This document shows, piece by piece, positions 22,660-51,952 of a stretch of 64,000 bases of DNA. Source of the DNA: Clostridia bacterium (GTDB lineage Bacteria > Bacillota > Clostridia > Christensenellales > CAG-917). How positions within the stretch are numbered: position 1 is the first letter of the stretch; every line of letters starts with the position of its first letter. The stretch is from the NCBI GenBank assembly GCA_017461985.1, contig JAFTSA010000007.1, forward strand, positions 68,431 through 132,430, in the 5' to 3' direction. A program made the position numbers and the translations under genes. The notes under the pieces are model-generated. The model worked only from the letters and a program-made list of their open reading frames with translations, did not search any database and was not told the DNA's origin.

Positions 22660-25600
22660 TTAGCCTTCTGCGTTTTGGCGTTCGTAGATGTTGTCGTACA
22701 ACGTGACGATGTCAACGTGGATGTCGCCGTTTGCGTAGGACAGTGATGCGAAGAAGTCTTCAAGGGTTGCTTCACCGATGATTGACAACACTTCGTCGCT
22801 AAGGGTTGTGATGTTGCCCCAGTCGAGGATGTTTTGGATGGTCATATTCTTCAACTTGTTTTGGAAGACAGTGCCAAGGTCGTCGATGCTTGCGTTTTTG
22901 ATCTCCTCATCGTCAAACAAACTGTCGGGGGAAATGTTCATCATATCACTGATGGTGAATTCCTTGAGGGCAGTGTCAAGTGAATTGACTTTGACGTCGT
23001 GGACAGCAAATGCTTTGAGTGCCGGTGCAGATTGTTGTTGCACGTATGCCACTTTCTTGGTGCCTGCGTCCATAAGTTCGAGGAAAGCAAGGACTTCAGC
23101 ATTGTCGCCTTTGATTTCGACGATATAGCCGATTGTTTCCTTCACGTAGACTACGTCTTCTGCATCATCGGGCACTTCGTCTTTTGCGATGAGCTTCTTG
23201 TCGTAGAAGGCAAGGGTTGCGCTCGCTTCATCGGTTTCGATATAGGTGGTTGAAGCCATTTGTTTTGAGAAGGTGGGGATGACTTCACCACCGCCCACGG
23301 CGTCGTCATATTCGCTATCGAGAGGAGCGTAGTAGTAGAAATCCTTTCCGCCTGCACTATGTTTGACGGTGTTTTTGATGAAAGTGAGGCCTGCGTATTC
23401 GCTTGATTTGTCGGGTATGATGTCAGTGCCGTCTGCTTTGAGATAGTACTTATCTCTTGTGTCTGCGGTGCTGTCTTCAACAAGAGCGAAGCCGTCACTG
23501 AGGAGGAGATATTTGTCAAGGTCTGCATGAGAGGGGTTGGCTGAACTGTATTCAACGTAGTTGCCGAGCACCTTGACGTAGAGTATATTGTCGCCTTTAT
23601 ATGTGGGGTTGCTGTAAATGGGGAGAATTAAAGTTTCCCCAGTGTAACCAGATTCTGCCTTCTCACGCGTATACAGACGAGAATACAGGTCACTACGACC
23701 CGAAATTGCAATGTATGTGCAGAGTGCAGGATTATAGTGCATCTTGCCGGCTTCGTCTTTATAATATCCATGACCACCGGACTTGAAAAGGTCTGCCATG
23801 ACTTCAGGAAATGTGTCAGGATCATCAAGCAAGGCATCGGCTATCAAGCTGGCGTCGAAAAGCGAATACTTATACTTGACAGTGCCTGTCTCCAATGCGG
23901 CTGTTTGTGCTTCATTGAGGGCAAAATACATAGTATCGCGGAGATAATACTTGCCGTTTCCATCACGGATGAAAGAGAAGTAGTGAGCCTCGTCACCATC
24001 GTAGATGGTGTAGTCGTCATCGTAAGGCACAAGATATTCACCTTTAACGCCGTAGTTTGCGGTGTCATCTCTGATGACGTCAAACTCGTAGATGTCCATA
24101 AGGTCTTTGAGATAGAGGTCGTTGATGACGTCTTCCATACGGTTGCCAAGGTCGGTGACAGGCAGATATGCCATCTTCTTCATGACGACATGGCTTGTGC
24201 CGTATGAATCCACAACAAAGTAGCGATTTTTATCAGAGAGCGGGTGTTCGTCGATATAGTCACGAGATGCTTCAACATAGAGACCGTCATCATAGTAATA
24301 ATAAATCAAGTTCGTGTCGTCGGTGTTGTCCACTTTCTTGTAGATGTCTGCATCGATATCCATAACGTCTGAGAGGGCAAGCCCGTCAAGTGCGCTGGAG
24401 AAGTCACTTATCTTGACCCGTGCGAAACGTTGGAGCATAAGTGAGGAATAAGTTACTTTAACGTAGGCGTCACCGCTGCCCGTTGTTTCCATACGTTTTT
24501 CGGTGTCGTTCCAATAGTATTTGGTCACACTGCCGTCTGCGATTTCTTCTTCAGTTGCAAGGCGGTAAGTGACGTCACCATTTGTGACACGGACATATCT
24601 TGTGCTGTCTCCGTGGACTGAGGGGTTGTACAAAGTGTAATAGTTGCCACTGCTGACGTAGACGTATTTGGTCACACTGCCGTCTGCGAGTTCTTCTTCA
24701 GTTGCAAGGCGGTAAGTGAAGTCGGCATTTGTGACACGGATATATCTTGTGCTGTCTTTGTGGACTGCGGGATTGTACAAAGTGTAATAATTGCCACTGC
24801 TGACGTAGACGTATTTGCCATCTGCGTGAGGCATATAGAGGACGGGGTCAATGGTGATGACTTCGTCAAGACGCATTGTGTTGATTACGTCTTCCATACG
24901 GTTGCCAATATCTGCGATATTGAGGCGTGCCATCTTCTTCACGATTGCGTGGCTTGTGCCTTCTGCCACGATTTCGTAGTAGGTCTCGGTGGGATTTTCG
25001 GTGATATAGTCGCTGTCCACGTCAATGAAAAGACCATTGTCATAGCGGTAATAGGTCTTTGTGGTGTCGCTGGTGCTTGCCACTTTCTTGTAGACGTCGG
25101 CGTCAATGTCCATGACTTCGTCAAGGCGCATCGTGTCAATGAGGCTTTCCATTTCGCTGGACATATTGTCCACCTTGACAAGAGCAAGTTTCTTGAGAAT
25201 TGAGCTTGTTTCGCTCTTTTCAACAAGTTTGTAGACGGTTTTTGTGAGGAATGCTGTTTCGGGGTCGTCACAGATGCAATATTTGCTTCCGTCAAAGGTG
25301 TAGAATTCGTCATCAATTGATGCGGTGGAGAAGTAGTCCTCGTCCGTCACAACTTCGTAGGTGTCCATATCCACGTCAATGACGTCACCGAGGACGAGGT
25401 CGTTGAATGCGTCAGAGAAGTCACCGATTGAAATGCTTGCAAGACGTTGGAGAATCTTGCTTGATGCGCTGCCGATGACGTAGAGGTTTTCGCCTGCGGG
25501 AGTGCCACTGACCATAGTGTTGGTGGCTTCGTCAAGATAGAATTTTTGGATTGATGAATCGGCGATTTCTGCCTCTGTTGCAAGGATATAGTCGGGGTGA

Positions 25601-27237
25601 TTAGGGTCACCGCTTGCCATCTTGGTGTATCTTGTTTCACCGCTGTGGAGGGTGGGATTATACAAAGTATAATAGAAGTTGTCGCCGTCAACAATCTTCA
25701 CGTAGTCACCCTTTTCATCTTCTGCGTAAAGTGAATAGGTGATTTCAATGACGTCACCAAGGATGAGGTCGTCAATGCTGTCACTGAGTTTGTTGAGGGG
25801 CTTGTCCTTCAAGGTTTGAAGGATTGTTGCGCTGTCCTCGGTCACTTCGATGAGGTCGCCAAGTTTCAAGGACATAAGGGTGTCGGTGGCGTTGTTAAGT
25901 CCGCTGACTGTGGTGTATGCAATGACTTGGATTGCCACGTCAGATGAGCCTGCGTGCACTCTAACGTATCCGTCAAAGCCTTCATCAAGACGGCTATCCT
26001 TTGTTGCAGGTGCATATTCAGGATTAAGACCGAAAGTGGGTGCGATGACAAATGCGCCAAGGGTGTCGTCATAGACGTAAACGTTGCCAGTGACGGTCAC
26101 TTTGCCTTCATCGGTGGTGAAGGGAGAGCCACCCTCATTTTTTGCAAAACTTGAAAGGAGCACGTAGCCGTCTGTCGTAGGCACGTATTCACCGCCAATT
26201 TCCACAAAGTGGTTGCCGTATGCTTTGACGTAAAACTCACTTGTGGCAGGCATAGTGTCAGGGTCGTACGCTACAAACTCAATGAAACGATAGTACACTT
26301 TGTCGTTGTCTTCCGTTGCAGTATAGCAGGTGTTGTCTACTCTGTAGACAAGGTTGCCGTGTTCATCAACCACGTCAATGGTGTTGCCATCTTCGTCGGT
26401 TGTGGTTTTCTTCACAAAACGAAGTTCACGGACAAGGTTTTCATCTCCGCTTCTGCCGCAGACGTAGGTGGCTGCGCCGTCCTTAACAAGGTCGATTTCG
26501 TCACCCATAACTTCTTCATATCTGTCAACCTTGACGTAGATTTGGTTTTCACCAAGTTTTACAAACTTGTCGCAGTCTGCATCAATGATTTTGCCCACTT
26601 CAATGCCGTTGATGACGTCACCAAAGGTTGAGAGGGGAGTGTCCTTGATTTGGTTGAAGATTGCGTTTTCACCAAGAGTGATGCCAAAGTTGTCTTCAAT
26701 TTGACGGAGGGTGATGTTGTCCCCGTCAATGGATTTCAAAATTGCATCAAGAGCCTTTGTGACAGGGCTGTACAAGTTGTCTTCAAGGATAGGAAGACCA
26801 TATTCAGTGAAATCCATACCGGCAAACTCGCCGATATCGTTCAAAGTTATGTTGTCCACAATCACCCCTAGGTTGTCCTTCAACTGATTGATGGGCACGT
26901 CAAAGAGCGGGGAGATGTCAATGCCACTGATTTCGCCAAAGTTGTCGGTGTGTTTTGTAAGACCATACTTTTCGGCGATTTCGTTCAAGGACATATTGCC
27001 GATGTTTTGCACGTCAGCAATAAGGTCTTGACCAACCTCCCAGATGGTTTTGTTTGTGATTTCACTGCCTTCGTCAAAAATGGCTTTTTCACCGGTGAGG
27101 CCGACTTTTTCAGTGATATCACCGATGGTGAAAGAGGTGGCAACAGCATAAATTGTGCCAGCGATTGCACCAACAAAGAGCACTATGCCCATGATGATGC
27201 CGAGAACAAACGTGAGTGTACCTTTCAAAACTCTCAT
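22660..27237 (-). CDS. Giant (1525 aa) N-terminally membrane-anchored, highly acidic Asp/Tyr-rich repeat protein, function unknown
   Basis: Uninterrupted 4.6-kb ORF with AGGAG before ATG 27237. One N-terminal TM helix (LTFVLGIIMGIVLFVGAIAGTIYAV). At least 8 copies of a ~35-aa motif (e.g. ILKKLALVKVDNMSSEMESLIDTMRLDEVMDIDADVY) plus tandem 49-aa repeats. No sortase or other familiar domain recognised. Confidence 0.85.
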   Translation of the reverse strand: MRVLKGTLTFVLGIIMGIVLFVGAIAGTIYAVATSFTIGDITEKVGLTGEKAIFDEGSEITNKTIWEVGQDLIADVQNIGNMSLNEIAEKYGLTKHTDNFGEISGIDISPLFDVPINQLKDNLGVIVDNITLNDIGEFAGMDFTEYGLPILEDNLYSPVTKALDAILKSIDGDNITLRQIEDNFGITLGENAIFNQIKDTPLSTFGDVINGIEVGKIIDADCDKFVKLGENQIYVKVDRYEEVMGDEIDLVKDGAATYVCGRSGDENLVRELRFVKKTTTDEDGNTIDVVDEHGNLVYRVDNTCYTATEDNDKVYYRFIEFVAYDPDTMPATSEFYVKAYGNHFVEIGGEYVPTTDGYVLLSSFAKNEGGSPFTTDEGKVTVTGNVYVYDDTLGAFVIAPTFGLNPEYAPATKDSRLDEGFDGYVRVHAGSSDVAIQVIAYTTVSGLNNATDTLMSLKLGDLIEVTEDSATILQTLKDKPLNKLSDSIDDLILGDVIEITYSLYAEDEKGDYVKIVDGDNFYYTLYNPTLHSGETRYTKMASGDPNHPDYILATEAEIADSSIQKFYLDEATNTMVSGTPAGENLYVIGSASSKILQRLASISIGDFSDAFNDLVLGDVIDVDMDTYEVVTDEDYFSTASIDDEFYTFDGSKYCICDDPETAFLTKTVYKLVEKSETSSILKKLALVKVDNMSSEMESLIDTMRLDEVMDIDADVYKKVASTSDTTKTYYRYDNGLFIDVDSDYITENPTETYYEIVAEGTSHAIVKKMARLNIADIGNRMEDVINTMRLDEVITIDPVLYMPHADGKYVYVSSGNYYTLYNPAVHKDSTRYIRVTNADFTYRLATEEELADGSVTKYVYVSSGNYYTLYNPSVHGDSTRYVRVTNGDVTYRLATEEEIADGSVTKYYWNDTEKRMETTGSGDAYVKVTYSSLMLQRFARVKISDFSSALDGLALSDVMDIDADIYKKVDNTDDTNLIYYYYDDGLYVEASRDYIDEHPLSDKNRYFVVDSYGTSHVVMKKMAYLPVTDLGNRMEDVINDLYLKDLMDIYEFDVIRDDTANYGVKGEYLVPYDDDYTIYDGDEAHYFSFIRDGNGKYYLRDTMYFALNEAQTAALETGTVKYKYSLFDASLIADALLDDPDTFPEVMADLFKSGGHGYYKDEAGKMHYNPALCTYIAISGRSDLYSRLYTREKAESGYTGETLILPIYSNPTYKGDNILYVKVLGNYVEYSSANPSHADLDKYLLLSDGFALVEDSTADTRDKYYLKADGTDIIPDKSSEYAGLTFIKNTVKHSAGGKDFYYYAPLDSEYDDAVGGGEVIPTFSKQMASTTYIETDEASATLAFYDKKLIAKDEVPDDAEDVVYVKETIGYIVEIKGDNAEVLAFLELMDAGTKKVAYVQQQSAPALKAFAVHDVKVNSLDTALKEFTISDMMNISPDSLFDDEEIKNASIDDLGTVFQNKLKNMTIQNILDWGNITTLSDEVLSIIGEATLEDFFASLSYANGDIHVDIVTLYDNIYERQNAEG
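24518..24811 (-). repeat. Tandem 147-bp (49-codon) duplication inside the giant gene
   Basis: Units 24518-24664 and 24665-24811 differ at about 10 of 147 positions. They encode YVYVSSGNYYTLYNP(A/S)VH(K/G)DSTRY(I/V)RVTN(A/G)D(F/V)TYRLATEEE(L/I)ADGSVTK. Confidence 0.9.
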
Positions 27238-31733: not shown

Positions 31734-33149
31734 ATGCTTAGAATTTACAACACAATGACAAGAAAGAAGGAGCAATTTGTTCCTCTAAACGAAGGCAAAG
31801 TGACAATGTACGCCTGCGGTATCACCGTCAGTGGCGAAGCACACATTGGACACGCCTATCAAGCACTGATTTACGACATCATCCGCAAGTATTTGGTGAT
31901 GAGTGGCTATGACGTCACTTACGCACGCAACTACACCGACGTGGACGACAAAATCATTGCCAAATCCCATGAAACAGGTATCCCTGCAGACAAGTATGCA
32001 GAGATGATGATTGCCAAGATTGACCACGAAATGAGAGCACTCCAAGTTGACGATCCCGACGTGTGGTTGAAAGCAACTTGCACTATGGACGGCATCATGG
32101 ACTTCATCGCAAAACTCATTGAAAAGGGACACGCCTACGCAACCAGTGAAGGCGACGTTTATTTTGCAGTTGAAAGTTTCTCTGGATATGGCAAGCTTAG
32201 TGGCAGAAAACTTGAAGACGCCTTTGAAAGTGTCCGCATAGAAAACGAAGACAACAAACAAAATCCTCTGGATTTTGCTTTGTGGAAATCCGCAAAAGAG
32301 GGCGAACCCTATTGGGAATCACCTTGGGGCAAAGGCCGTCCCGGTTGGCATATTGAATGCTCTGCAATGAATATGAAAGCCTTTGGTGAGCAAATCGATA
32401 TCCACGGCGGTGGACGAGACCTCATCTTCCCCCACCACGAAAACGAAATTGCACAAACCGAAGCCCTCACCGGCAAGACTTTTGCAAAATATTGGATTCA
32501 CAACGGACTCATCAAGGTCAACGGACAAAAGATGTCCAAGAGTCTTGGCAACAGCCTTGTGCTTCACGACCTTCTTGAAGCATACCACCCTGAAACCATC
32601 AAGTTTGCACTCCTTCAAACCAACTATCGTGGTGACATCAACGTGACCGACACCCTCTTCCCCGATGCAGAAAAGCATTTGACAGGCTTTTATAAGGTCA
32701 TTGAAAGCGTCTATGCAAAATTTGGCACAGACAATGGTGACACCGACAGTCAAGGCATTGAAGACAGCTTCAAACAATGTATGGACGATGACTTCAACAC
32801 CGCAAAAGCCCTTGCAAACCTCTTCGGCATTTTCAAGAAGATCAAGGCAAAGGTCAACGCCGGCGACAACACCGCAACAGACGACGTTGCAGTGCTGAAA
32901 AAGACCTATGGTCTTCTTGGTTTCTTCCGTGAAGACCCCAAAACATACATCGCAAGAGCAGAGGCAAAGAAGGTTGATGAAACCCCCTCAAACGACGCCC
33001 CCGCCGAAGTTATGGCACTTGTCAACGAAAGGGCAGAAGCCAAGGCAAACAAAAACTGGGCACTTGCCGATGAAATAAGAGCCAAAATCACCGCCCTCGG
33101 CTACTCCGTCAAGGACACCAAAGACGGCGCAGTGGTTGAAAAGCTTTAA
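31734..33149 (+). CDS. cysS: Cysteine--tRNA ligase
   Basis: [15 protein letters not shown] (HIGH) and KMSKSLGN (KMSKS) motifs. Confidence 0.95.
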
Positions 33150-38478: not shown

Positions 38479-38632
38479 TTCGTCATTGAAGTTGCTAAAC
38501 TGAATTTTCAAATTGAAATACCCCAAAATACTACAAATTTAGACAAAGAACACGGATTTCCCCCCTTTTCTTTATTTTTTCGCGCGCAAAAAAGGTGATA
38601 TTATGAGTGCACTACCTTTTTCGGAGGATTTT

Positions 38633-39367
38633 ATGAAAAGAATCGTTATTGCTGACGACAACGCAGGCTTGACTTTGAGCCTGAAAGAATATTTTGTTTC
38701 AAGCGACAAGTACGAAGTTGTGGGCATCGCATCAAACGGCGTAGAGGCTCTCGCACTTGTGGAGAAATTCAACCCCGATTTTCTTCTTTTGGATATCGTT
38801 ATGCCTGAGCTTGACGGCTTTGGTGTGTTGACCGCCCTTGGTGTCAAGCGTCCTACCGTCATTATGATGTCCCAGTTGGCAACGGACGGCTTTGTGCAGA
38901 AGGCTCTTCGCTACGGCGCAAGTTATTTCCTTGCAAAACCTTTCAGCCTTGAAGCGTTGAGGGCAACCCTTGACGACTTTTCCTCTCCTCAACAGACAGA
39001 AAAGAGAAGTGCAAAACACCACACTCTTGATGAAAAGATAGCCAATCTTTTCATCTCCGTAGGCATACCTGCCCACATAAAGGGCTATCAATTCCTTCGT
39101 GAAGCCATAAAGATGACTGTGGAAAGCCCCGAAATCATTGGCAGCATAACAAAGAAACTCTATCCCACCATAGCCGAGCACTTTGACACCTCACCTTCAA
39201 AGGTTGAAAGGGCAATCCGCCATGCAATAGAGGTGGCGTGGAGCAGAGGCAAGATTGAAAACATAAATCAAATCTTCGGCATCAAGGTTTATTCACCCAA
39301 CGAAAAGCCTACAAACGGAGAGTTTATCGCCCTCATCGCAGACAAAATGCTCCTTGAAGGCGCATAA
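38633..39367 (+). CDS. spo0A: Sporulation master regulator Spo0A
   Basis: Receiver domain (IADDN...LLLDIVMPELDG) plus the Spo0A-specific C-terminal domain with GIPAHIKGYQFLREAI and SKVERAIRHAIEVAW. GGAGG at 38623-38627 before ATG 38633. Confidence 0.92.
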   Translation: MKRIVIADDNAGLTLSLKEYFVSSDKYEVVGIASNGVEALALVEKFNPDFLLLDIVMPELDGFGVLTALGVKRPTVIMMSQLATDGFVQKALRYGASYFLAKPFSLEALRATLDDFSSPQQTEKRSAKHHTLDEKIANLFISVGIPAHIKGYQFLREAIKMTVESPEIIGSITKKLYPTIAEHFDTSPSKVERAIRHAIEVAWSRGKIENINQIFGIKVYSPNEKPTNGEFIALIADKMLLEGA

Positions 39368-39431
39368 TCGCATAAAAATGCGGTGTAAAGTGCCGATTTT
39401 TGCAATTTTGCATAATTCGACAAAAAATCAG

Positions 39432-39460
39432 TTGACATATCTCACTTTCGGGGTGATAAT
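39432..39460 (+). promoter_or_regulatory. Sigma-A promoter of the ABC importer operon
   Basis: TTGACA (39432-39437), 17-nt spacer, GATAAT (39455-39460). Confidence 0.6.
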
Positions 39461-39486
39461 TTAGTCATCAAAGAAACGGAGCAACT

Positions 39487-39540
39487 ATGAGAACTTTCGC
39501 ATTCTACGGCTATTATTATTACGATAATCTTAGTAAATAG
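39487..39540 (+). CDS. Candidate 17-codon Tyr-rich leader peptide MRTFAFYGYYYYDNLSK
   Basis: GGAG (39478-39481) lies 5 nt before ATG 39487. Four consecutive Tyr codons at 39511-39522. Stop TAG at 39538-39540. It sits between a promoter and a leader terminator. Confidence 0.4.
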   Translation: MRTFAFYGYYYYDNLSK

Positions 39541-39578
39541 ACTACGATAGTTTTTGTACACATTTTTATGAATAACGG

Positions 39579-39608
39579 GGACTTATCGTAGAGGTAAGTT
39601 CCTTTTTT
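39579..39608 (+). terminator. Leader (attenuator) terminator upstream of the ABC importer
   Basis: GGACTTA (39579-39585) pairs with TAAGTTCC (39595-39602, one bulge), followed by T6 (39603-39608). It lies 43 nt before the SBP start codon. Confidence 0.5.
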
Positions 39609-39650
39609 ATTAACACGACAAAAAAACAAATGACATATAGGAGAAGAGTC

Positions 39651-40619
39651 ATGAAAAAATCATTTAAACTCATCGCAATCGTCCTTGCAGTGGCAGCACT
39701 GGCAACAATCGGTTTTACCGCTTGTGACAAGACTGAAGCAGACTTCACGGTGGGCATCCTTCAACCCGTGGCGCACGACGCTCTCGGCGCAGCCAACAGA
39801 GGTTTCCAAGAAGAACTCACCCGCCTTATGAACGCCGCAGGCAAGACAGTTGCTTTTGACGACCAAAACGCACAAGGCAATGAAGAAACAATGACCACCA
39901 TCGTCAGCACGTTTGTGTCAAAGGGTGTTGACCTTATGCTCACCATCGGCACCGGCGCAACCCAAGTTGCATCAGGTCTTGACAGAACAACCCCCATCCT
40001 GTTCACAGCAGTCACCGACCCCGCAGGTGCAGGCCTCGTTTCATCAAACGGCGCAGACAGAGCATCAAACAATGTCAGCGGAACTTCTGATATGAACCCC
40101 GTTGCTCTCCAAATGCAACTCTGCAAAGATCTCGGCATGACCAAAGTGGCTCTCCTTTACACCTCAAGCGAAGACAACAGCCGTATCCAAATCGACATGG
40201 CAAAAGCAGCCTGCGACAGCATCGGCCTCAATTACGTTGTGAAGACAGTGTCAGGCATGGATGACATCATGACAGTGATGAACGACATCGGCGCAGACAC
40301 CACAATCGACGGCATCTACATCCCCACCGACAACAACCTTGCAGCAAACGCAGCAACAGTCCACGCACAAAACAAGGCAGGACGTTGCCTCCCCGTCGTC
40401 TGCGGTGAAGAAAGCATGAACAATCTCTGTGGCGTTGCAACCTACTCAATCGACTACTACGAACTTGGCAAGCAAACCGCAAAGATGGCATTTGACATCC
40501 TTATGGGCAACAAGAAAGTTGGCGAAATGCCCGTTGAATATCAATCAGGCACACCCGCACTTTCAAAGAACGAAACAGTGGCAAACGACCTCGGCTTTGA
40601 CCTTTCAGTGCTTGACTGA
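39651..40619 (+). CDS. ABC transporter substrate-binding lipoprotein (ABC_sub_bind / COG2984 family)
   Basis: Lipobox LATIGFTAC. Family-typical VGILQPVAHDALGAANRGF, FTAVTDPAGAGLV, NVSGTSD and VALLYTSSEDNS. AGGAG at 39639-39643 before ATG 39651. Confidence 0.88.
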   Translation: MKKSFKLIAIVLAVAALATIGFTACDKTEADFTVGILQPVAHDALGAANRGFQEELTRLMNAAGKTVAFDDQNAQGNEETMTTIVSTFVSKGVDLMLTIGTGATQVASGLDRTTPILFTAVTDPAGAGLVSSNGADRASNNVSGTSDMNPVALQMQLCKDLGMTKVALLYTSSEDNSRIQIDMAKAACDSIGLNYVVKTVSGMDDIMTVMNDIGADTTIDGIYIPTDNNLAANAATVHAQNKAGRCLPVVCGEESMNNLCGVATYSIDYYELGKQTAKMAFDILMGNKKVGEMPVEYQSGTPALSKNETVANDLGFDLSVLD

Positions 40620-40719
40620 TAAAAAGGCGTAAATCACTTAAAAATAAGTTTACAAACGCAAAATAATAAGATAAAATCTTAATTCAGCAACAAAAGTAAA
40701 ATAAAACAGGAAATCGTTT

Positions 40720-41664
40720 ATGGAAATTTCAGTTTTGACAGCACTCAATCAAGGACTTATGTGGGGCATCCTCGCAATAGGTGTGTTTGTGTCCTTCAAG
40801 GTTCTTGACTTTGCTGATATGACTTGCGAAGGCTCAATTGCTCTCGGTGGCGCAATCACAGCAGTCACCCTTCAAGCAGGGCTTCACCCCATCCTTGCAG
40901 TGTTGTTTGCACTTCTTGGTGGTGCAGGCGCAGGTCTTATCACAGGCCTTCTTCACACAAAGTTGAGGATTCCTCCTATCCTTTCTGGTATCCTCACAAT
41001 GACCGCCCTTTACTCAATAAACTTGCGCATCATGAAAGACAGGGCATCCATCACTATGCTCAACGTCAAGACTTTGACAAGTGGTCTCACAGATGCTCTT
41101 GTCAACAGCGGTTTGGCCTATAAGTATAGCGTGCAAATGTCAAATATGATCATCGCCCTCATCTTTGTGGCATTGGTCATCGGCGCAATCTACTGGTTCT
41201 TCGGCACAGAGTTTGGATGTACAATCCGTGCAACAGGCATGAACCCCAAGATGTGTCGCGCACAAGGCATCAACACCAACACCACAATCATCGTTGGCCT
41301 TATGATTTCAAACGCACTCATTGCTCTTGCAGGTTGCCTCATCAGCCAAATGCAATTCAACACAACCGTCAGCATGGGCACAGGTGCAATCGTCATCGGC
41401 CTTGCAAGCATCATCATAGGTGAGGCGTTGACGGGCAAGAAATTCAGTTTCTGGGCAAGGCTCATTATGCTCATTGTGGGCAGTATCCTCTACCGCCTTG
41501 TCATCACAATGGTGCTTATGATCCCCGGATTCAACACCAATGACTTGAAACTGTTGACGGCAATCGTGGTTGCAGTGGCTCTTGCAATCCCCGCAATCAA
41601 GGGCGGAGCAAAGCCTCTCATCCAAAAGTTTATTGGCAAGAAAGGAGGAAATGAAAATGCTTAA
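40720..41664 (+). CDS. ABC transporter permease (COG4120, BPD_transp_2 type)
   Basis: 314 aa with ~9 TM helices, adjacent to the COG2984 SBP and COG1101 ATPase. Confidence 0.88.
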   Translation: MEISVLTALNQGLMWGILAIGVFVSFKVLDFADMTCEGSIALGGAITAVTLQAGLHPILAVLFALLGGAGAGLITGLLHTKLRIPPILSGILTMTALYSINLRIMKDRASITMLNVKTLTSGLTDALVNSGLAYKYSVQMSNMIIALIFVALVIGAIYWFFGTEFGCTIRATGMNPKMCRAQGINTNTTIIVGLMISNALIALAGCLISQMQFNTTVSMGTGAIVIGLASIIIGEALTGKKFSFWARLIMLIVGSILYRLVITMVLMIPGFNTNDLKLLTAIVVAVALAIPAIKGGAKPLIQKFIGKKGGNENA

Positions 41665-42505
41665 AATCACAGGCATCAGCAAAACCTTCAACAAAGGCAC
41701 AATAAATGAAAAGTTGGCACTTGACGAACTGTCAATCACCATCAACGACGGCGACTTCATCACCGTCATCGGTGGCAACGGCGCAGGCAAATCTACACTC
41801 CTCAATGCAATCTGCGGAACAATCGCAGTTGAAAGCGGAAGTATCGAACTTGACGGCAAGGACATCACCCACCTCAAGGAAGCAAAGAGAGCAAAGTATC
41901 TGGGCAGAGTTTTCCAAGACCCTATGATGGGCACTTGCGCAGATATGAGCGTTGAAGAAAACCTTGCACTTGCTGTCCGCCGTGGCAAAACCCGTTCACT
42001 GAAATGGGGTATGCCCAAAAAGGATAGAGAAGTGTACGTGGAAGAACTTGCCAAACTCAACCTCGGTCTTGAAGAAAGACTGTCAAACAAAGTGGGCCTT
42101 CTCAGTGGCGGTCAAAGACAAGCAATCACCTTGCTTATGGCAACACTCAATCGTCCTGAACTTCTTCTCCTAGACGAACATACAGCCGCACTTGATCCCA
42201 AGACAGCAGAGAAGGTGCTTGCCCTCACCGAGCAAATCGTGGAAGGCAGTGGCATCACCACCCTTATGATAACCCACAATATGCAAGACGCCATAACCTA
42301 CGGCAATCGTCTTATCATGATGAACGCAGGCAAAGTCATCTATGACGTCAGCGGTGAAGAAAAGAAAAACCTGACAGTCAAATCACTTCTTGAAAAGTTT
42401 GAAGAGATTGCACCCAGCGTTGTTGCAAGCGACAAAATGGTGCTCTCCGCAGGCACAAAGACAGAGGACGCACAAGAGCCTCAAGACCAAGAGACAGCCG
42501 AATAG
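41657..42505 (+). CDS. ABC transporter ATP-binding protein (COG1101)
   Basis: Walker A GGNGAGKST, signature LSGGQRQA, Walker B LLLLDEHTAALD. ATG 41657 lies 8 nt after AAGGAGG and overlaps the permease end. Confidence 0.9.
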   Translation: MLKITGISKTFNKGTINEKLALDELSITINDGDFITVIGGNGAGKSTLLNAICGTIAVESGSIELDGKDITHLKEAKRAKYLGRVFQDPMMGTCADMSVEENLALAVRRGKTRSLKWGMPKKDREVYVEELAKLNLGLEERLSNKVGLLSGGQRQAITLLMATLNRPELLLLDEHTAALDPKTAEKVLALTEQIVEGSGITTLMITHNMQDAITYGNRLIMMNAGKVIYDVSGEEKKNLTVKSLLEKFEEIAPSVVASDKMVLSAGTKTEDAQEPQDQETAE

Positions 42506-42521
42506 AACACCAAAAACAATA

Positions 42522-42552
42522 AAAAAAGAGCGACGGAAACGTCGCTCTTTTA
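42522..42552 (+). terminator. Terminator of the ABC importer operon
   Basis: AGAGCGACG-gaaa-CGTCGCTCT followed by TTTT. Confidence 0.8.
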
Positions 42553-50332: not shown

Positions 50333-51952
50333 ATGGACGTTTCAAGAAACTTTATCGAAGAAATCATCGACGACGAGCTTGCCAGCGGTAAAGTGTCGAA
50401 AATCATCACCAGATTCCCCCCTGAGCCCAACGGCTATCTGCACATCGGCCATGCAAAGGCTTTGTGCATCAACTTTGGCATGAAAGAAAAGTATCAAGGG
50501 GAGTGCAACCTCCGCTTTGACGACACCAATCCTGCCAAGGAAGACGTGGAATATATGGAGTCCATCAAGGAAGACATCAAGTGGCTTGGCTTTGACTGGG
50601 ACAGAGTGCTCAACGCCAGTGACTACTTTGACAAAATGTATGAGTGTGCCGTCAAACTCATCAAAGACGGCAAGGCATACGTCTGCGATTTGACCGCAGA
50701 TGAAATCCGCGCAACAAGAGGCAGTTTTGAAGTGCCCGGCACTGAAAGCCCTTATCGCAACCGCTCAGTTGAAGAAAGCCTTGACCTCTTTGAAAGAATG
50801 AGAGCAGGTGAATTTGCTGACGGCGAAAGAGTGCTCCGTGCAAAGATAGATATGGCATCACCCAACATCAACATGCGTGACCCCGTCATCTATCGCATTT
50901 GCCACGCAGAGCATCCTCACACCGGTGCAAAATGGGTGATTTATCCTATGTATGACTTTGCTCATCCTCTTGAGGATGCAATCGAAGGCATCACACACTC
51001 ACTTTGCTCACTTGAGTTTGAAAACCATCGTCCTCTCTATGACTGGGTGACGGAAAACTGCGGATTCCCCGCACCTCGTCCTCGTCAAATTGAGTTTGCA
51101 AGACTTAATCTTACACACACCGTTATGAGCAAGCGTTTCATCAAGCGTCTTGTTGACGAAGGTGTTGTATGGGGCTGGAACGACCCTCGTCTTTCAACCC
51201 TCAGCGGTATTAGAGAAAGAGGATACCCCCCTGAAGCAATAAGAGATTTCTGCTCACGTATAGGAGTAGCCAAGGCAGACAGCGAAGTTGACATTGCAAT
51301 CCTTGAACACTGCGTGAGAGAAAACCTCAACCAAAACGCAACAAGAGCAATGGTTGTCACCAAGCCTCTTAAACTCATCGTTGACAACTATCCCGAAGGA
51401 AAGAGTGAGGATTGTTTCATTGAAAACAACCCCAACACAGATGAAAAGCACGTTTGCACTTTCTCAAGAGAACTCTACATTGAGGAAAGCGACTTTGCCC
51501 TCAATCCCCCCTCAAAATTCTTCCGTTTGAAGCCTGATGGCATGGTGAGATTGAAGGGAGCATACGTGGTGAAGTATGCCGGTGTTGAACAAGACGCCGA
51601 CGGCAACGTCACATGCGTACACGTTGAACTTCTTGAAGGCACAAAGAGTGGTGAAGAAGGCGCAAACATCAAGGTGAAGGGCACAATCCACTGGGTAAAT
51701 GCCAATGACTCAGTTGACGTCCGCCTGAATATGTTTGACTATCTCATCAACGATGGTGACGGCGACTATATGGACAGAGTCAACCCCAACTCACTGACAG
51801 TTCTCAACGGCAAGGCAGAAAAGTTCCTTGCATCGGCAAAGCCCGGCGACAGATTCCAATTCCTCCGTCAAGGATATTTCATCAAGCGCAATGTTGATGG
51901 AGAGGAATACAACAGCATCGTTGGACTGAAAGACAGTTTCAAAGCAAAATAA
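50333..51952 (+). CDS. glnS: Glutamine--tRNA ligase
   Basis: [17 protein letters not shown] (HIGH) and VMSKR (KMSKS) motifs, with a GlnRS-type C-terminal anticodon-binding region. Confidence 0.95.

Follow-up and report, generated by a model that had tools for sequence, protein, structure and literature searches.

A candidate tyrosine-codon transcription attenuator preceding an ABC importer operon in gut Clostridia

The window analyzed here, a stretch of 64,000 nt of DNA from a Clostridia bacterium, contains a three-gene ABC importer operon on the forward strand. The operon consists of the genes for a substrate-binding lipoprotein (SBP; 39651 to 40619; PF04392, Pfam E = 8e-49; lipobox Cys25), a permease (40720 to 41664; BPD_transp_2, Pfam E = 3e-27) and an ATPase (41657 to 42505; Pfam ABC_tran, E = 5e-28), and is closed by a bidirectional terminator that a terminator scan placed at 42524-42551. 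The SBP gene starts with ATG 39651, which has a proper AGGAG, rather than at 39630 as in the mechanical ORF list, and the likely start of the ATPase gene is ATG 41657 (or 41651), after an AGGAGG. This gene order is identical in all orthologous loci. Directly upstream of the leader of the operon lies spo0A, which has its own terminator-like hairpin (39381-39395).

The leader region (39416-39650) was read directly, and the promoter, a GGAG motif, the short ORF MRTFAFYGYYYYDNLSK and a hairpin with a T6 tract were all found at the coordinates given in the original prediction, which had proposed a ribosome-mediated attenuator sensing tyrosine codons. The sigma-A type promoter TTGACA-17-GATAAT (39432 to 39460, forward strand) comprises TTGACA at 39432-39437, a 17 nt spacer and GATAAT at 39455-39460; it matches the consensus at 11 of 12 positions and obtained the top score of a promoter scan within 38.5-43 kb. 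All orthologous leaders have TTGACATAT and a (G/T)ATAAT −10 element in common. Transcription would start at about 39467. The GGAG Shine-Dalgarno motif of the ORF (39478 to 39481), located 5 nt 5′ of ATG 39487, is invariant in 12 of the 12 distinct leaders. The ORF itself (39487 to 39540, forward strand) has 17 codons plus a stop codon at 39538-39540, and all orthologs preserve its frame, its length and the stop. The intrinsic terminator ('3:4'; 39577 to 39608, forward strand; terminator scan) follows, with an 11-bp stem (39577-39587 with 39593-39603), the loop GUAGA and the T6 tract at 39603-39608, which ends 42 nt ahead of the SBP start codon. Hairpin and T tract had thus been recognized correctly, but the stem is longer than previously described. 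The fold of the leader RNA beats all but 1 of 200 shuffled sequences (z = −3.1).

The codons of the ORF are atg aga act ttc gca ttc tac ggc tat tat tat tac gat aat ctt agt aaa tag. The aromatic codons with a putative regulatory role, Phe4, Phe6, Tyr7 and Tyr9 to Tyr12, span 39496 to 39522 and include a YYYY run at 39511-39522. Among the orthologs the ORF is free of indels, and the peptide occurs in six variants of the form MRTFAFY[GAR]YYY[YF][DSL][NS]LSK. Tyr7 and Tyr9 to Tyr11 are invariant at the amino acid level, with TAT/TAC swaps, and Phe4 and Phe6 are also conserved, with synonymous TTC/TTT changes. Codon 12, which is unpaired in a hairpin loop, is only TAC, TAT, TTC or TTT, that is, always Tyr or Phe, and the hypervariable codons 8 and 13 directly adjoin conserved aromatic codons. 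Third codon positions account for 11 of the 17 variable columns (p = 0.008); when the hypervariable codons 8 and 13 are left aside, they account for 9 of the 11, all synonymous (p = 0.0014). In the 64-kb window, the leader ORF is the sole short ORF (8-45 aa, both strands) with at least four Tyr per five residues, and no convincing candidate for a leader with a run of another amino acid was detected in intergenic positions. A search of both strands of 624 kb of fetched DNA for the nucleotide pattern of YYY[YF] returned just 6 occurrences outside the leaders.

The leader was found in all 16 loci that were reached via the SBP alone (66-96% identity; L001-5 and L071-81), and Shine-Dalgarno motif, ATG, reading frame and stop position are conserved in every one of them. 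MAGs with the leader include CALABJ01 and GCA_965337155.1. The Tyr run, the mini-ORF, the element after the stop codon and the terminator are conserved in the alignment of orthologous leaders, a comparison that the original prediction had suggested as a check. Among the 12 distinct leaders, the constraint is focal: invariant columns make up 4/4 of the Shine-Dalgarno motif, 15/16 of segment 2 and 14/17 of segment 3 (both defined below) and 37/54 of the ORF, and only 2/11 of the 5′ UTR, 0/6 of the spacer between Shine-Dalgarno motif and ATG, and 3/19 of the linker. The leaders are confined to a single narrow clade and have a mean column identity of 87%, so that only few independent events underlie the covariation described below. 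When metagenome contigs were scanned for leaders ahead of other genes, with the ORF as anchor, only two matches were obtained, both additional leaders at the same SBP, and motif scans of the 624 kb of fetched loci revealed one leader copy per locus and none ahead of another gene. Support at the level of a regulon is therefore absent. Only a plain promoter, and no leader, precedes the homologs with 50-51% identity (L067, L068), and for the 57% homolog (L065, L066) the sequence ends too near the gene to judge whether a leader is present. A conserved short ORF upstream of Christensenella homologs, 'MFFERFFHIIH', was considered as a Phe/His leader and rejected, as it is the antisense of the N-terminus of a divergent gene.

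Single-sequence MFE folding and RNAalifold both predicted a hairpin, P1, that encloses the ORF (39486 to 39558, forward strand) and corresponds to an anti-antiterminator ('1:2'). It is built from the helices 39486-39499/39545-39558, 39503-39507/39537-39541 and 39513-39518/39531-39536, and in its outer part the start-codon region AUGAGAACUUUCG pairs with CGAUAGUUUUUGU. In the alignment, 99% of the P1 cells are paired, and the value for P1 and terminator together is likewise 99%. Changes on both sides of a P1 pair were observed at columns 21:93 (UA/CG/UG), 39:75 (Phe6 TTC/TTT with the stop codon TAG/TAA) and 42:72 of alignment A2. In P1 and the terminator together, four pairs are altered on both sides, the observed covariation score was reached by 0 of 500 shuffles, and slid controls contained 0-1 such pairs. 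The pairing within P1 largely accounts for the nucleotide conservation of the ORF, so that conservation of the peptide is weak evidence of translation.

Two further segments complete the set of helices. Segment 2 (B), CUACGAUAGUUUUUGU (39542 to 39557, forward strand), starts 1 nt past the stop codon and has either segment 1 (in P1) or segment 3 (in the antiterminator) as its partner; in all orthologs it lies 0-1 nt behind a TAG or TAA stop. Segment 3 (C), ACGGGGACUUAUCGUAG (39575 to 39591, forward strand), has two roles: it supplies the antiterminator with its 3′ strand and the terminator with its 5′ arm and loop. In the antiterminator, segment 2 pairs with ACGGGGAC-U-UAUCGUAG (39575-39591) over 16 bp with one bulge. 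In the 12 leaders, 95% of the antiterminator cells and 100% of the terminator cells are paired. The antiterminator lacks double changes, its columns being invariant, and the terminator has one compensatory pair, GC/AU at columns 115:139, as well as one-sided G-U/A-U changes in five pairs. No variation occurs in the 5′ arm of the terminator and its loop GUAG, but only 6/11 columns of the 3′ arm are invariant, as expected because segment 3 has two partners. The stabilities are alike in all 12 leaders, with −11 to −17 kcal/mol for P1, −13 to −15 kcal/mol for the antiterminator and −14 to −17 kcal/mol for the terminator. P1, antiterminator and terminator thus form the 1:2 / 2:3 / 3:4 layout known from trp.

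These helices modify the earlier view of the switch. The word TACGATA is indeed present twice, at 39520-39526 and 39543-39549, as is TTATCGTAG at 39583-39591, and the pairing of the TACGATA copy behind the stop with the terminator segment is part of the new model. The antiterminator had, however, been described as 8 bp that overlap the terminator stem by only 2 nt, and it had been cautioned that mutual exclusivity would need proper folding. As the 16-bp helix uses up the whole 5′ arm and the loop of the terminator, this concern is removed; upon folding, exclusivity holds, with P1 as a third element that had been missed. The first TACGATA copy, to which a role had also been assigned, is missing from most orthologs, which have TAT TCA AAT or TTT CTT AGT at this site, and is irrelevant.

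The influence of ribosome position was analyzed by masked folding. For a transcript that ends before the 3′ arm of the terminator, the antiterminator had a probability of about 0.91 when any of the codons 4-15 was occupied by the ribosome, and of 0.12 when the stop codon was occupied, in line with the proposal that a ribosome at the stop masks the element CTACGATA behind it. For the full leader with the ribosome at the stop, the probability of the terminator was 0.98. Equilibrium folding failed as a full account of read-through upon stalling: for the full-length leader with a stalled ribosome, it predicted clean antitermination for the sequence of the window, but not for most orthologs, in which the terminator outcompeted the antiterminator (mean probability of the terminator about 0.7, range 0-0.99). 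Read-through would therefore have to be kinetic, and it was recast in this way and tested on the truncated transcript. Also in the E. coli trp operon, read-through is kinetic. For the truncated transcript without a ribosome, equilibrium folding preferred the antiterminator over the outer P1 helix, so that superattenuation would also depend on the order of folding.

The leader has a short ORF with its own ribosome-binding site, a conserved cluster of aromatic codons, a terminator upstream of the structural genes, mutually exclusive helices and a stop codon that, as predicted by folding, is placed so that a terminating but not a stalled ribosome blocks the antiterminator. Taken together, we regard it as probable (roughly 80%) that the leader is a classical ribosome-mediated transcription attenuator of the trp/phe/his type, with Tyr (5-6) and Phe (2-3) as regulatory codons, which controls the three genes of an ABC importer whose most likely substrate is tyrosine. 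The proposed attenuator of the original prediction is thus supported by conservation, coding pattern, covariation and masked folding, that is, by all computational tests. In the proposed mechanism, a ribosome would load at the GGAG/AUG 39487 while RNA polymerase is still inside the leader. With ample charged tRNA-Tyr (and tRNA-Phe), it would reach the stop codon (39538-39540), and its footprint would cover CUACGAUAG, the first half of segment 2. Masked in this way, segment 2 could not pair with segment 3, and the terminator (39577-39603 plus T6) would form, so that transcription would end at about 39608 and release a leader RNA of about 140 nt. A ribosome stalled on the Phe/Tyr codons (39496-39522) would occupy segment 1 and leave segment 2 free. 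The emerging segment 3 would then be caught at once in the 16-bp antiterminator, ahead of the synthesis of the 3′ arm of the terminator, resulting in read-through into the importer genes. In the complete absence of translation, P1 (segment 1 with segment 2) would form first and the terminator thereafter, which equals superattenuation. Stalling would respond to the charging of tRNA-Tyr, but because Tyr and Phe codons are mixed, specificity for Tyr only is not established by the codons.

The sequence of the SBP bears on the substrate of the importer. Its best solved relatives by sequence are 3LFT (Trp), 6HNI-K CD0873 (Tyr) and 3LKV (Phe), and an AlphaFold model of the SBP (pLDDT 88) retrieved the same five chains at E values of 1e-23 to 1e-25, with the next matches at 1e-11. 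The C. difficile protein CD0873 (PDB 6HNI/6HNJ/6HNK) is specific for tyrosine owing to two residues, Glu263, which forms a hydrogen bond with the Tyr hydroxyl, and Tyr279, which excludes Trp (PMC6816091). Glu253 and Tyr269 of the SBP align with these residues without gaps, and their spacing of 16 residues is the same in all three structures; in alignment A1, the former is conserved to at least 90% and the latter invariant. According to the alignment and the residue roles in PMC6816091, the equivalent positions are Ala/Tyr in the Phe binder and Ala/Gln in the Trp binder, and Tyr269 of the SBP aligns with Gln284 of SP1069. Like the SBP, CD0873 is a lipoprotein; the two fall into one family (E = 1e-34 by sequence), share their fold (TM 0.78/0.85 to 6HNJ) and have Glu and Tyr at the specificity positions. 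Their identity is, however, just about 31-32%, and tyrosine binding by the SBP is predicted from these residues. These similarities suggest tyrosine as the substrate, via a tyrosine-type pocket with Glu253 and Tyr269, and agree with the initial assignment to a COG2984-type importer for tyrosine or aromatic amino acids.

The original prediction had also noted that transporters of this family were predicted from T-box regulons to import tryptophan (TrpXYZ). This link to T-box control is correct for Streptococcus (S. suis, S. pneumoniae), in which a 461-nt T-box RNA upstream of trpXYZ binds tRNA-Trp directly (PMC9382623), but it does not apply to the present SBP. It scored 218.2 bits with the TrpX equivalog model NF041285 of NCBIfam, compared with a cutoff of 390, and lacks the Gln at the indole-contacting position, having the tyrosine-type residues instead. 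The two systems have the importer family in common (PF04392 SBP, BPD_transp_2 permease, ATPase), and in both a termination/antitermination decision in the leader would report the charging of the cognate tRNA; the sensor proposed here, in contrast to the T-box, is a ribosome translating a 54-nt ORF. No leader peptide is described for CD0873, and the list of 25 T-box units of C. difficile (PMC11477304) does not contain this protein. Rfam returned no match ahead of homologous transporters in 19 loci. These results, together with the missing T-box core in 64 loci (see below), offer no support for a replacement of a Tyr T-box by the leader.

Could the RNA act without the ribosome? A protein, a small ligand or a tRNA might stabilize P1 or the antiterminator, with an ORF that is incidental and untranslated. 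The strong structure of the RNA and the covariation in P1 would suit such a switch, and T-boxes or RNA-binding proteins are usual for amino acid genes of Firmicutes (PMC2965389). However, a match to a known riboswitch or T-box, which would have spoken against the attenuator from the outset, was looked for with Rfam and not found. At the gathering threshold, Rfam identified only a tRNA in the whole window, and at E ≤10 it returned four matches in 39300-39750, all with E ≥3.8, far under the gathering scores and from no leader family. The leader thus matches neither the T-box nor the covariance models of Trp_leader, His_leader, Leu_leader, Thr_leader, the Phe leader or other Rfam amino acid leaders. 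In none of the 64 loci of the genome collection (L001-L064) do the 500 nt preceding the SBP contain the T-box core GGTGGNACCRCG, and a TRAP-like protein site was rejected because the leader has only three or four (G/U)AG triplets (UAG/GAG) with irregular spacing. Furthermore, a non-coding element would not need an invariant GGAG at the optimal distance from an invariant ATG, a kept frame, synonymous changes at third positions and a stop codon 0-1 nt before segment 2. We consider a switch of RNA alone improbable and infer that the leader ORF is translated.

Only marginally more probable, and still unlikely, is the possibility that the ribosome stalls for another reason, namely that MRTFAFYxYYY is an arrest peptide that responds to free tyrosine, another small molecule or a drug (cf. 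TnaC, ErmCL) instead of tRNA charging. The peptide sequence is near-invariant outside three positions, and any stall in codons 4-15 would be relayed to the antiterminator by the same RNA layout, as it would still free segment 2 and lead to read-through. The logic could then be induction by the substrate, which is sensible for an importer that feeds catabolism. Nearly all invariant codons sit in the P1 helices, however, which is sufficient to explain their conservation, and the unpaired positions vary freely (codons 8, 13 and 14) or stay merely aromatic (codon 12, Tyr/Phe). A run of identical codons is typical of attenuators that sense charging, unlike known arrest peptides, and no resemblance to described arrest peptides was noticed, although this comparison was not systematic. 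If true, this reading would add a TnaC-like sensor of free tyrosine in the ribosome tunnel, coupled to a three-helix switch that induces an importer by its substrate in a gut anaerobe. The least probable explanation is that the ORF arose by chance or encodes a functional small peptide, and that the hairpin simply terminates transcription behind spo0A or insulates the transporter from this gene. AT-rich leaders commonly hold short ORFs, and spo0A lies directly upstream. Yet spo0A has a hairpin of its own, and the leader hairpin is preceded by a strong, conserved promoter oriented towards the importer. In L075, the unit of promoter, leader and SBP is intact even though three genes lie between spo0A and the leader. 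Against chance also stand the conservation in all 16 SBP-anchored loci and the singularity of the Tyr-run ORF in the 64-kb window, and no genes for the maturation or export of a peptide product were found near the leader.

Leader-peptide attenuation is a textbook case of coupling between ribosome and RNA polymerase, and this known mechanism is unchanged by the present leader; its range is widened. That the leader extends classical attenuation to a tyrosine signal and an importer target in Firmicutes is well supported. A tyrosine-codon attenuator was sought in the literature without a relevant result, which, given the incomplete coverage, is absence of evidence only. The nearest described case is the aroR-aroF leader of C. 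glutamicum, which contains Phe-Tyr-Phe codons and is reported to respond to Phe, but not to Tyr (PMC11802643). In Firmicutes, in which T-boxes dominate, such attenuators are uncommon. Gram-positive His leaders have been described in the B. cereus group, Peptostreptococcaceae and Erysipelotrichales; they are lineage-restricted and apparently evolved independently, and some occupy the place of T-boxes or repressors in relatives (PMC2965389, PMC9413887). The present leader shares with these His leaders and with aroR the lineage-restricted distribution of a classical attenuator, but it differs in its run of 4-5 Tyr codons and in its transporter target, theirs being biosynthetic or hisS-type. It would represent a further instance of a short reading frame that evolved into a charging sensor within a narrow lineage, here of uncultured Clostridia from the ruminant and human gut. 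Leader codons and pocket residues of the SBP are two independent lines that predict a tyrosine function for a previously uncharacterized importer. If the leader works as proposed, its roughly 140 nt would make a compact switch responsive to tyrosine, which might be tested as a tool in Gram-positive hosts.

The organization closely resembles that of trpL, pheL and hisL of E. coli, with a promoter, a short ORF with its own Shine-Dalgarno motif, a run of the sensed codons, three exclusive helices, a terminator before the first structural gene and a stop codon set so that a terminating ribosome masks segment 2. In contrast to these leaders, the present one occurs in Clostridia, carries Tyr (and Phe) codons, lacks any similarity to them in sequence or Rfam model, precedes an uptake system instead of a biosynthetic operon or an aminoacyl-tRNA synthetase gene, and has the start-codon region as segment 1, so that the whole ORF is folded within P1. 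In trpL, the AUG is located at +27, the stop codon at about +70 and the termination site at about +140. The geometry of the present leader is close to this, with the AUG at about +21, the stop codon at about +72 and the end of the T tract at about +142, counted from the putative transcription start.

The promoter (TTGACA at 39432-37, a 17-nt spacer, GATAAT at 39455-60), which has 11 of 12 matches and is the best promoter-like site of the region, is followed by the Shine-Dalgarno motif GGAG (39478-81) and a 17-codon ORF (ATG 39487, TAG 39538-40) with the product MRTFAFYGYYYYDNLSK. These elements, the two TACGATA words (39520-26 and 39543-49), TTATCGTAG (39583-91), and a hairpin with T6 (39603-08) were all read from the sequence where the original prediction had placed them. 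Two details needed correction: the terminator stem comprises 11 bp (39577-87 with 39593-603, loop GUAGA), and the gene of the substrate-binding lipoprotein (SBP), which does lie downstream of the leader, starts at ATG 39651. The SBP (PF04392) belongs to a three-gene ABC importer together with a BPD_transp_2 permease and an ATPase. A strong bidirectional terminator (42524-51) closes these genes, and a pyruvate:ferredoxin oxidoreductase gene on the opposite strand is convergent with them. The SBP and permease genes are separated by a 100-nt AT-rich spacer (40620-40719) containing a promoter-like TTTACA-17-TAAAAT (40649-40677), which may act as an internal promoter or mark a site of differential expression. 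The gene upstream of the leader is spo0A (38603-39367), which is followed by a weak terminator-like hairpin of its own (39381-95).

Relatives of the SBP were searched for, and their loci were retrieved blind to the presence of a leader, from a one-genome-per-species scan (64 loci) and from look-ups of individual metagenomic proteins. The leader was found in all 16 loci in which the SBP is 66-96% identical (L001-5, L071-81), each with promoter, GGAG, and ATG. An alignment of orthologous leaders had been proposed as a check, and frame, post-stop element, and terminator are indeed kept in 16/16 of these SBP-anchored loci. Two further leaders, both upstream of the same SBP, came from a metagenome contig scan anchored on the ORF. 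In locus L075, spo0A and the leader are set apart by three unrelated genes, but promoter, leader, and SBP remain together as an intact unit, so that the leader goes with the importer and not with spo0A. The inserted genes (L075 5738-9688) encode 668, 288, and 290 aa, none with Pfam hits. This locus has MRTFAFYRYYYFLSLSK as its variant leader product, with CTACGAT following the stop codon directly.

On both strands of the 64-kb window, no short ORF other than that of the leader has 4 or more Tyr within 5 residues. Across 12 distinct aligned leaders, constraint is focal: invariant columns make up 4/4 of the Shine-Dalgarno motif, 37/54 of the ORF, 15/16 of segment 2 (39542-57), and 14/17 of segment 3 (39575-91), and 2/11 of the 5' UTR, 0/6 of the spacer between GGAG and ATG, and 3/19 of the linker. 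Amid this variable linker, between the antiterminator strands, TGAA(T) (39569-39573; alignment columns 105-110) is nearly invariant and may serve as a pause or loop element. No indels occur within the ORF in the 12 leaders, the sole 1-nt deletion (L075) being located just past the stop. Third codon positions account for 11 of the 17 variable ORF columns (p = 0.008) and, when the hypervariable codons 8 and 13 are set aside, for 9 of 11, all synonymous (p = 0.0014). The six peptide variants follow MRTFAFY[G/A/R]YYY[Y/F][D/S/L][N/S]LSK. Codon 12, which is unpaired in a hairpin loop and adjoins the freely varying codon 13, is only ever TAC, TAT, TTC, or TTT, indicative of selection for the aromatic identity of the codon and not for an RNA sequence.

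Only 1 of 200 shuffles folds at least as well as the leader RNA (z = -3.1). A long hairpin (P1, 39486-39558) that encloses the entire ORF is predicted both by RNAalifold and by single-sequence folding. Its outer part pairs the start-codon region, (U/C)AUGAGAACUUUCG, with CGAUAGUUUUUGU(A/G); inside it, two further helices join the codons of Phe6-Tyr7 to K17-stop and those of Tyr9-11 to L15-S16-K17. In the 12 leaders, P1 and the terminator are 99% paired, with two-sided changes in four pairs. Three of these fall where changes are synonymous or non-coding, namely the base 5' of AUG with the base 3' of GUUUUUGU (UA/CG/UG), the third bases of Phe6 and the stop codon (TTC with TAG, TTT with TAA), and the third bases of Tyr7 and Lys17; the fourth lies at the foot of the terminator stem (GC/AU). 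The observed covariation score was reached by none of 500 shuffles, and slid controls yielded 0-1 two-sided pairs. Masked folding revealed the antiterminator, CUACGAUAGUUUUUGU (39542-57) with ACGGGGAC-U-UAUCGUAG (39575-91). With 16 bp and one bulge, it is much larger than the 8 bp originally proposed and consumes the whole 5' arm and loop of the terminator; the TACGATA copy within the ORF proved irrelevant. The antiterminator is 95% paired in the 12 leaders, and since its columns are almost invariant, its compatible changes are all one-sided. The loop GUAG and the 5' arm of the terminator are invariant, whereas the 3' arm varies, the pattern expected of a strand with two obligatory partners. 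Segments 2 and 3 can thus pair with each other or with alternative partners, segment 2 with the start-codon region (segment 1) and segment 3 with the terminator 3' arm (segment 4), as in the 1:2 / 2:3 / 3:4 scheme of trp. In every ortholog, the three helices are of similar stability (P1 -11 to -17, antiterminator -13 to -15, terminator -14 to -17 kcal/mol).

The distance from the stop codon to segment 2 is 0-1 nt in all leaders. A ribosome was represented in the folding by keeping unpaired the stretch between 12 nt 5' and 15 nt 3' of the first P-site base. In a shortened transcript, which ends before the 3' arm of the terminator exists, the probability of the antiterminator is about 0.91 with the A site at any of codons 4-15 and 0.12 with the ribosome at the stop codon, in agreement with the proposal that a ribosome there blocks antitermination. 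For the full leader, the probability of the terminator is 0.98 with the ribosome at the stop codon and 0.95 without a ribosome. With a stalled ribosome, full-length equilibrium folding yields clear antitermination for the window sequence but not for most orthologs (mean terminator probability about 0.7). Because the terminator of most orthologs wins at equilibrium despite the stall, read-through in this model must depend on the antiterminator forming first. The situation is the same in E. coli trp, where 3:4 exceeds 2:3 in stability. Without a ribosome, the shortened transcript at equilibrium favours the antiterminator over the outer P1 helix, so that superattenuation would also be kinetic.

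The leader is predicted to be a classical leader-peptide attenuator in mechanism and anatomy, and it has all of the structural features that define this class. The finding is real and its original interpretation essentially right, with P1 to be added as anti-antiterminator; we put the probability of the attenuation mechanism at about 0.8. A match to a known riboswitch or T-box would have spoken against it, but an Rfam search of the whole window returned one tRNA only, nothing credible in the leader, and no T-box or other riboswitch. The leader is neither a T-box nor a member of any Rfam leader family. Two aminoacyl-tRNA synthetase genes of the window, cysS (31734-33149) and a Glu/Gln-tRNA synthetase gene (50333-51952), likewise come without an Rfam T-box. 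Rfam also detected no riboswitches or T-boxes in 19 loci of related Clostridia, and the lineage may be T-box-poor in general. Homologous importers of Streptococcus are under a Trp T-box (PMC9382623). Leader-peptide attenuators are known yet uncommon in Firmicutes; the B. cereus group, Peptostreptococcaceae, and Erysipelotrichales, for example, have His leaders (PMC2965389, PMC9413887). The nearest aromatic case that we found is C. glutamicum aroR-aroF, which carries Phe-Tyr-Phe and reportedly lacks a Tyr response (PMC11802643). No report of a tyrosine-codon attenuator was found in the literature searched, the coverage of which was incomplete, so that this is absence of evidence only. The leader adds a member to a well-known kind of regulator, one with a new signal amino acid, a transporter for target, and an uncultured Clostridia clade for host; it is a sound and tidy finding more than a surprising one.

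Among solved structures, sequence comparison relates the SBP only to 3LFT (S. pneumoniae, Trp-bound), 6HNI/J/K (C. difficile CD0873, Tyr-bound), and 3LKV (V. cholerae, Phe-bound). Its AlphaFold model (pLDDT 88) matches the same five chains (E 1e-23 to 1e-25; next matches 1e-11), with the top TM-score (0.78/0.85) to CD0873. Bradshaw et al. (PMC6816091) trace specificity to two positions. In CD0873 these are Glu263, which bonds the tyrosine hydroxyl (Ala in the Phe and Trp binders), and Tyr279, which excludes tryptophan (Gln in the Trp binder). Glu253 and Tyr269 of the window SBP align with them without gaps, likewise 16 residues apart, and both are invariant or nearly so in its relatives. The SBP scores 218 bits against the TrpX equivalog, well under the cutoff of 390. 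Tyrosine, over-represented in the leader, is thus also the amino acid indicated by the SBP, an independent line of evidence. With two to three Phe codons, and with Tyr and Phe exchanging at codon 12, the leader may respond to phenylalanine as well; we regard tyrosine as the sole signal and substrate as reasonably probable, though somewhat less so than the attenuation mechanism. Beyond the importer locus, the wider window contains no genes tied specifically to aromatic amino acids; it holds housekeeping genes (ftsH, cysE/cysS, ECF transporter genes, truA, Glu/Gln-tRNA synthetase). A large uncharacterised ORF of 1525 aa (22660-27237, minus strand) is without Pfam match at E up to 1e-5.

The leader is absent from loci with SBP identities of 51% or less, of which L067 and L068 carry plain promoters. 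At the single 57% homolog (L065), the contig end is too near the gene to assess a leader. A different strong intrinsic terminator (AACTCTGCGG...CCGCAGAGTTTTTTTT, L065 52-83) lies about 65 nt before its start, and the contig end 148 nt upstream of the gene limits the reading of this terminator as another kind of attenuator. A short ORF, 'MFFERFFHIIH...', conserved about 210-270 nt 5' of the SBP homolog in eight loci (L022, L025-L028, L030, L031, L063), resembled a Phe/His leader and was rejected as an artefact, being antisense to the N-terminus of a divergent gene (MDYMKESLKKHYEWKG...). In six Christensenella-like loci (L020, L021, L023, L024, L029, L033), a second, paralogous SBP gene lies directly 5' of the SBP homolog.
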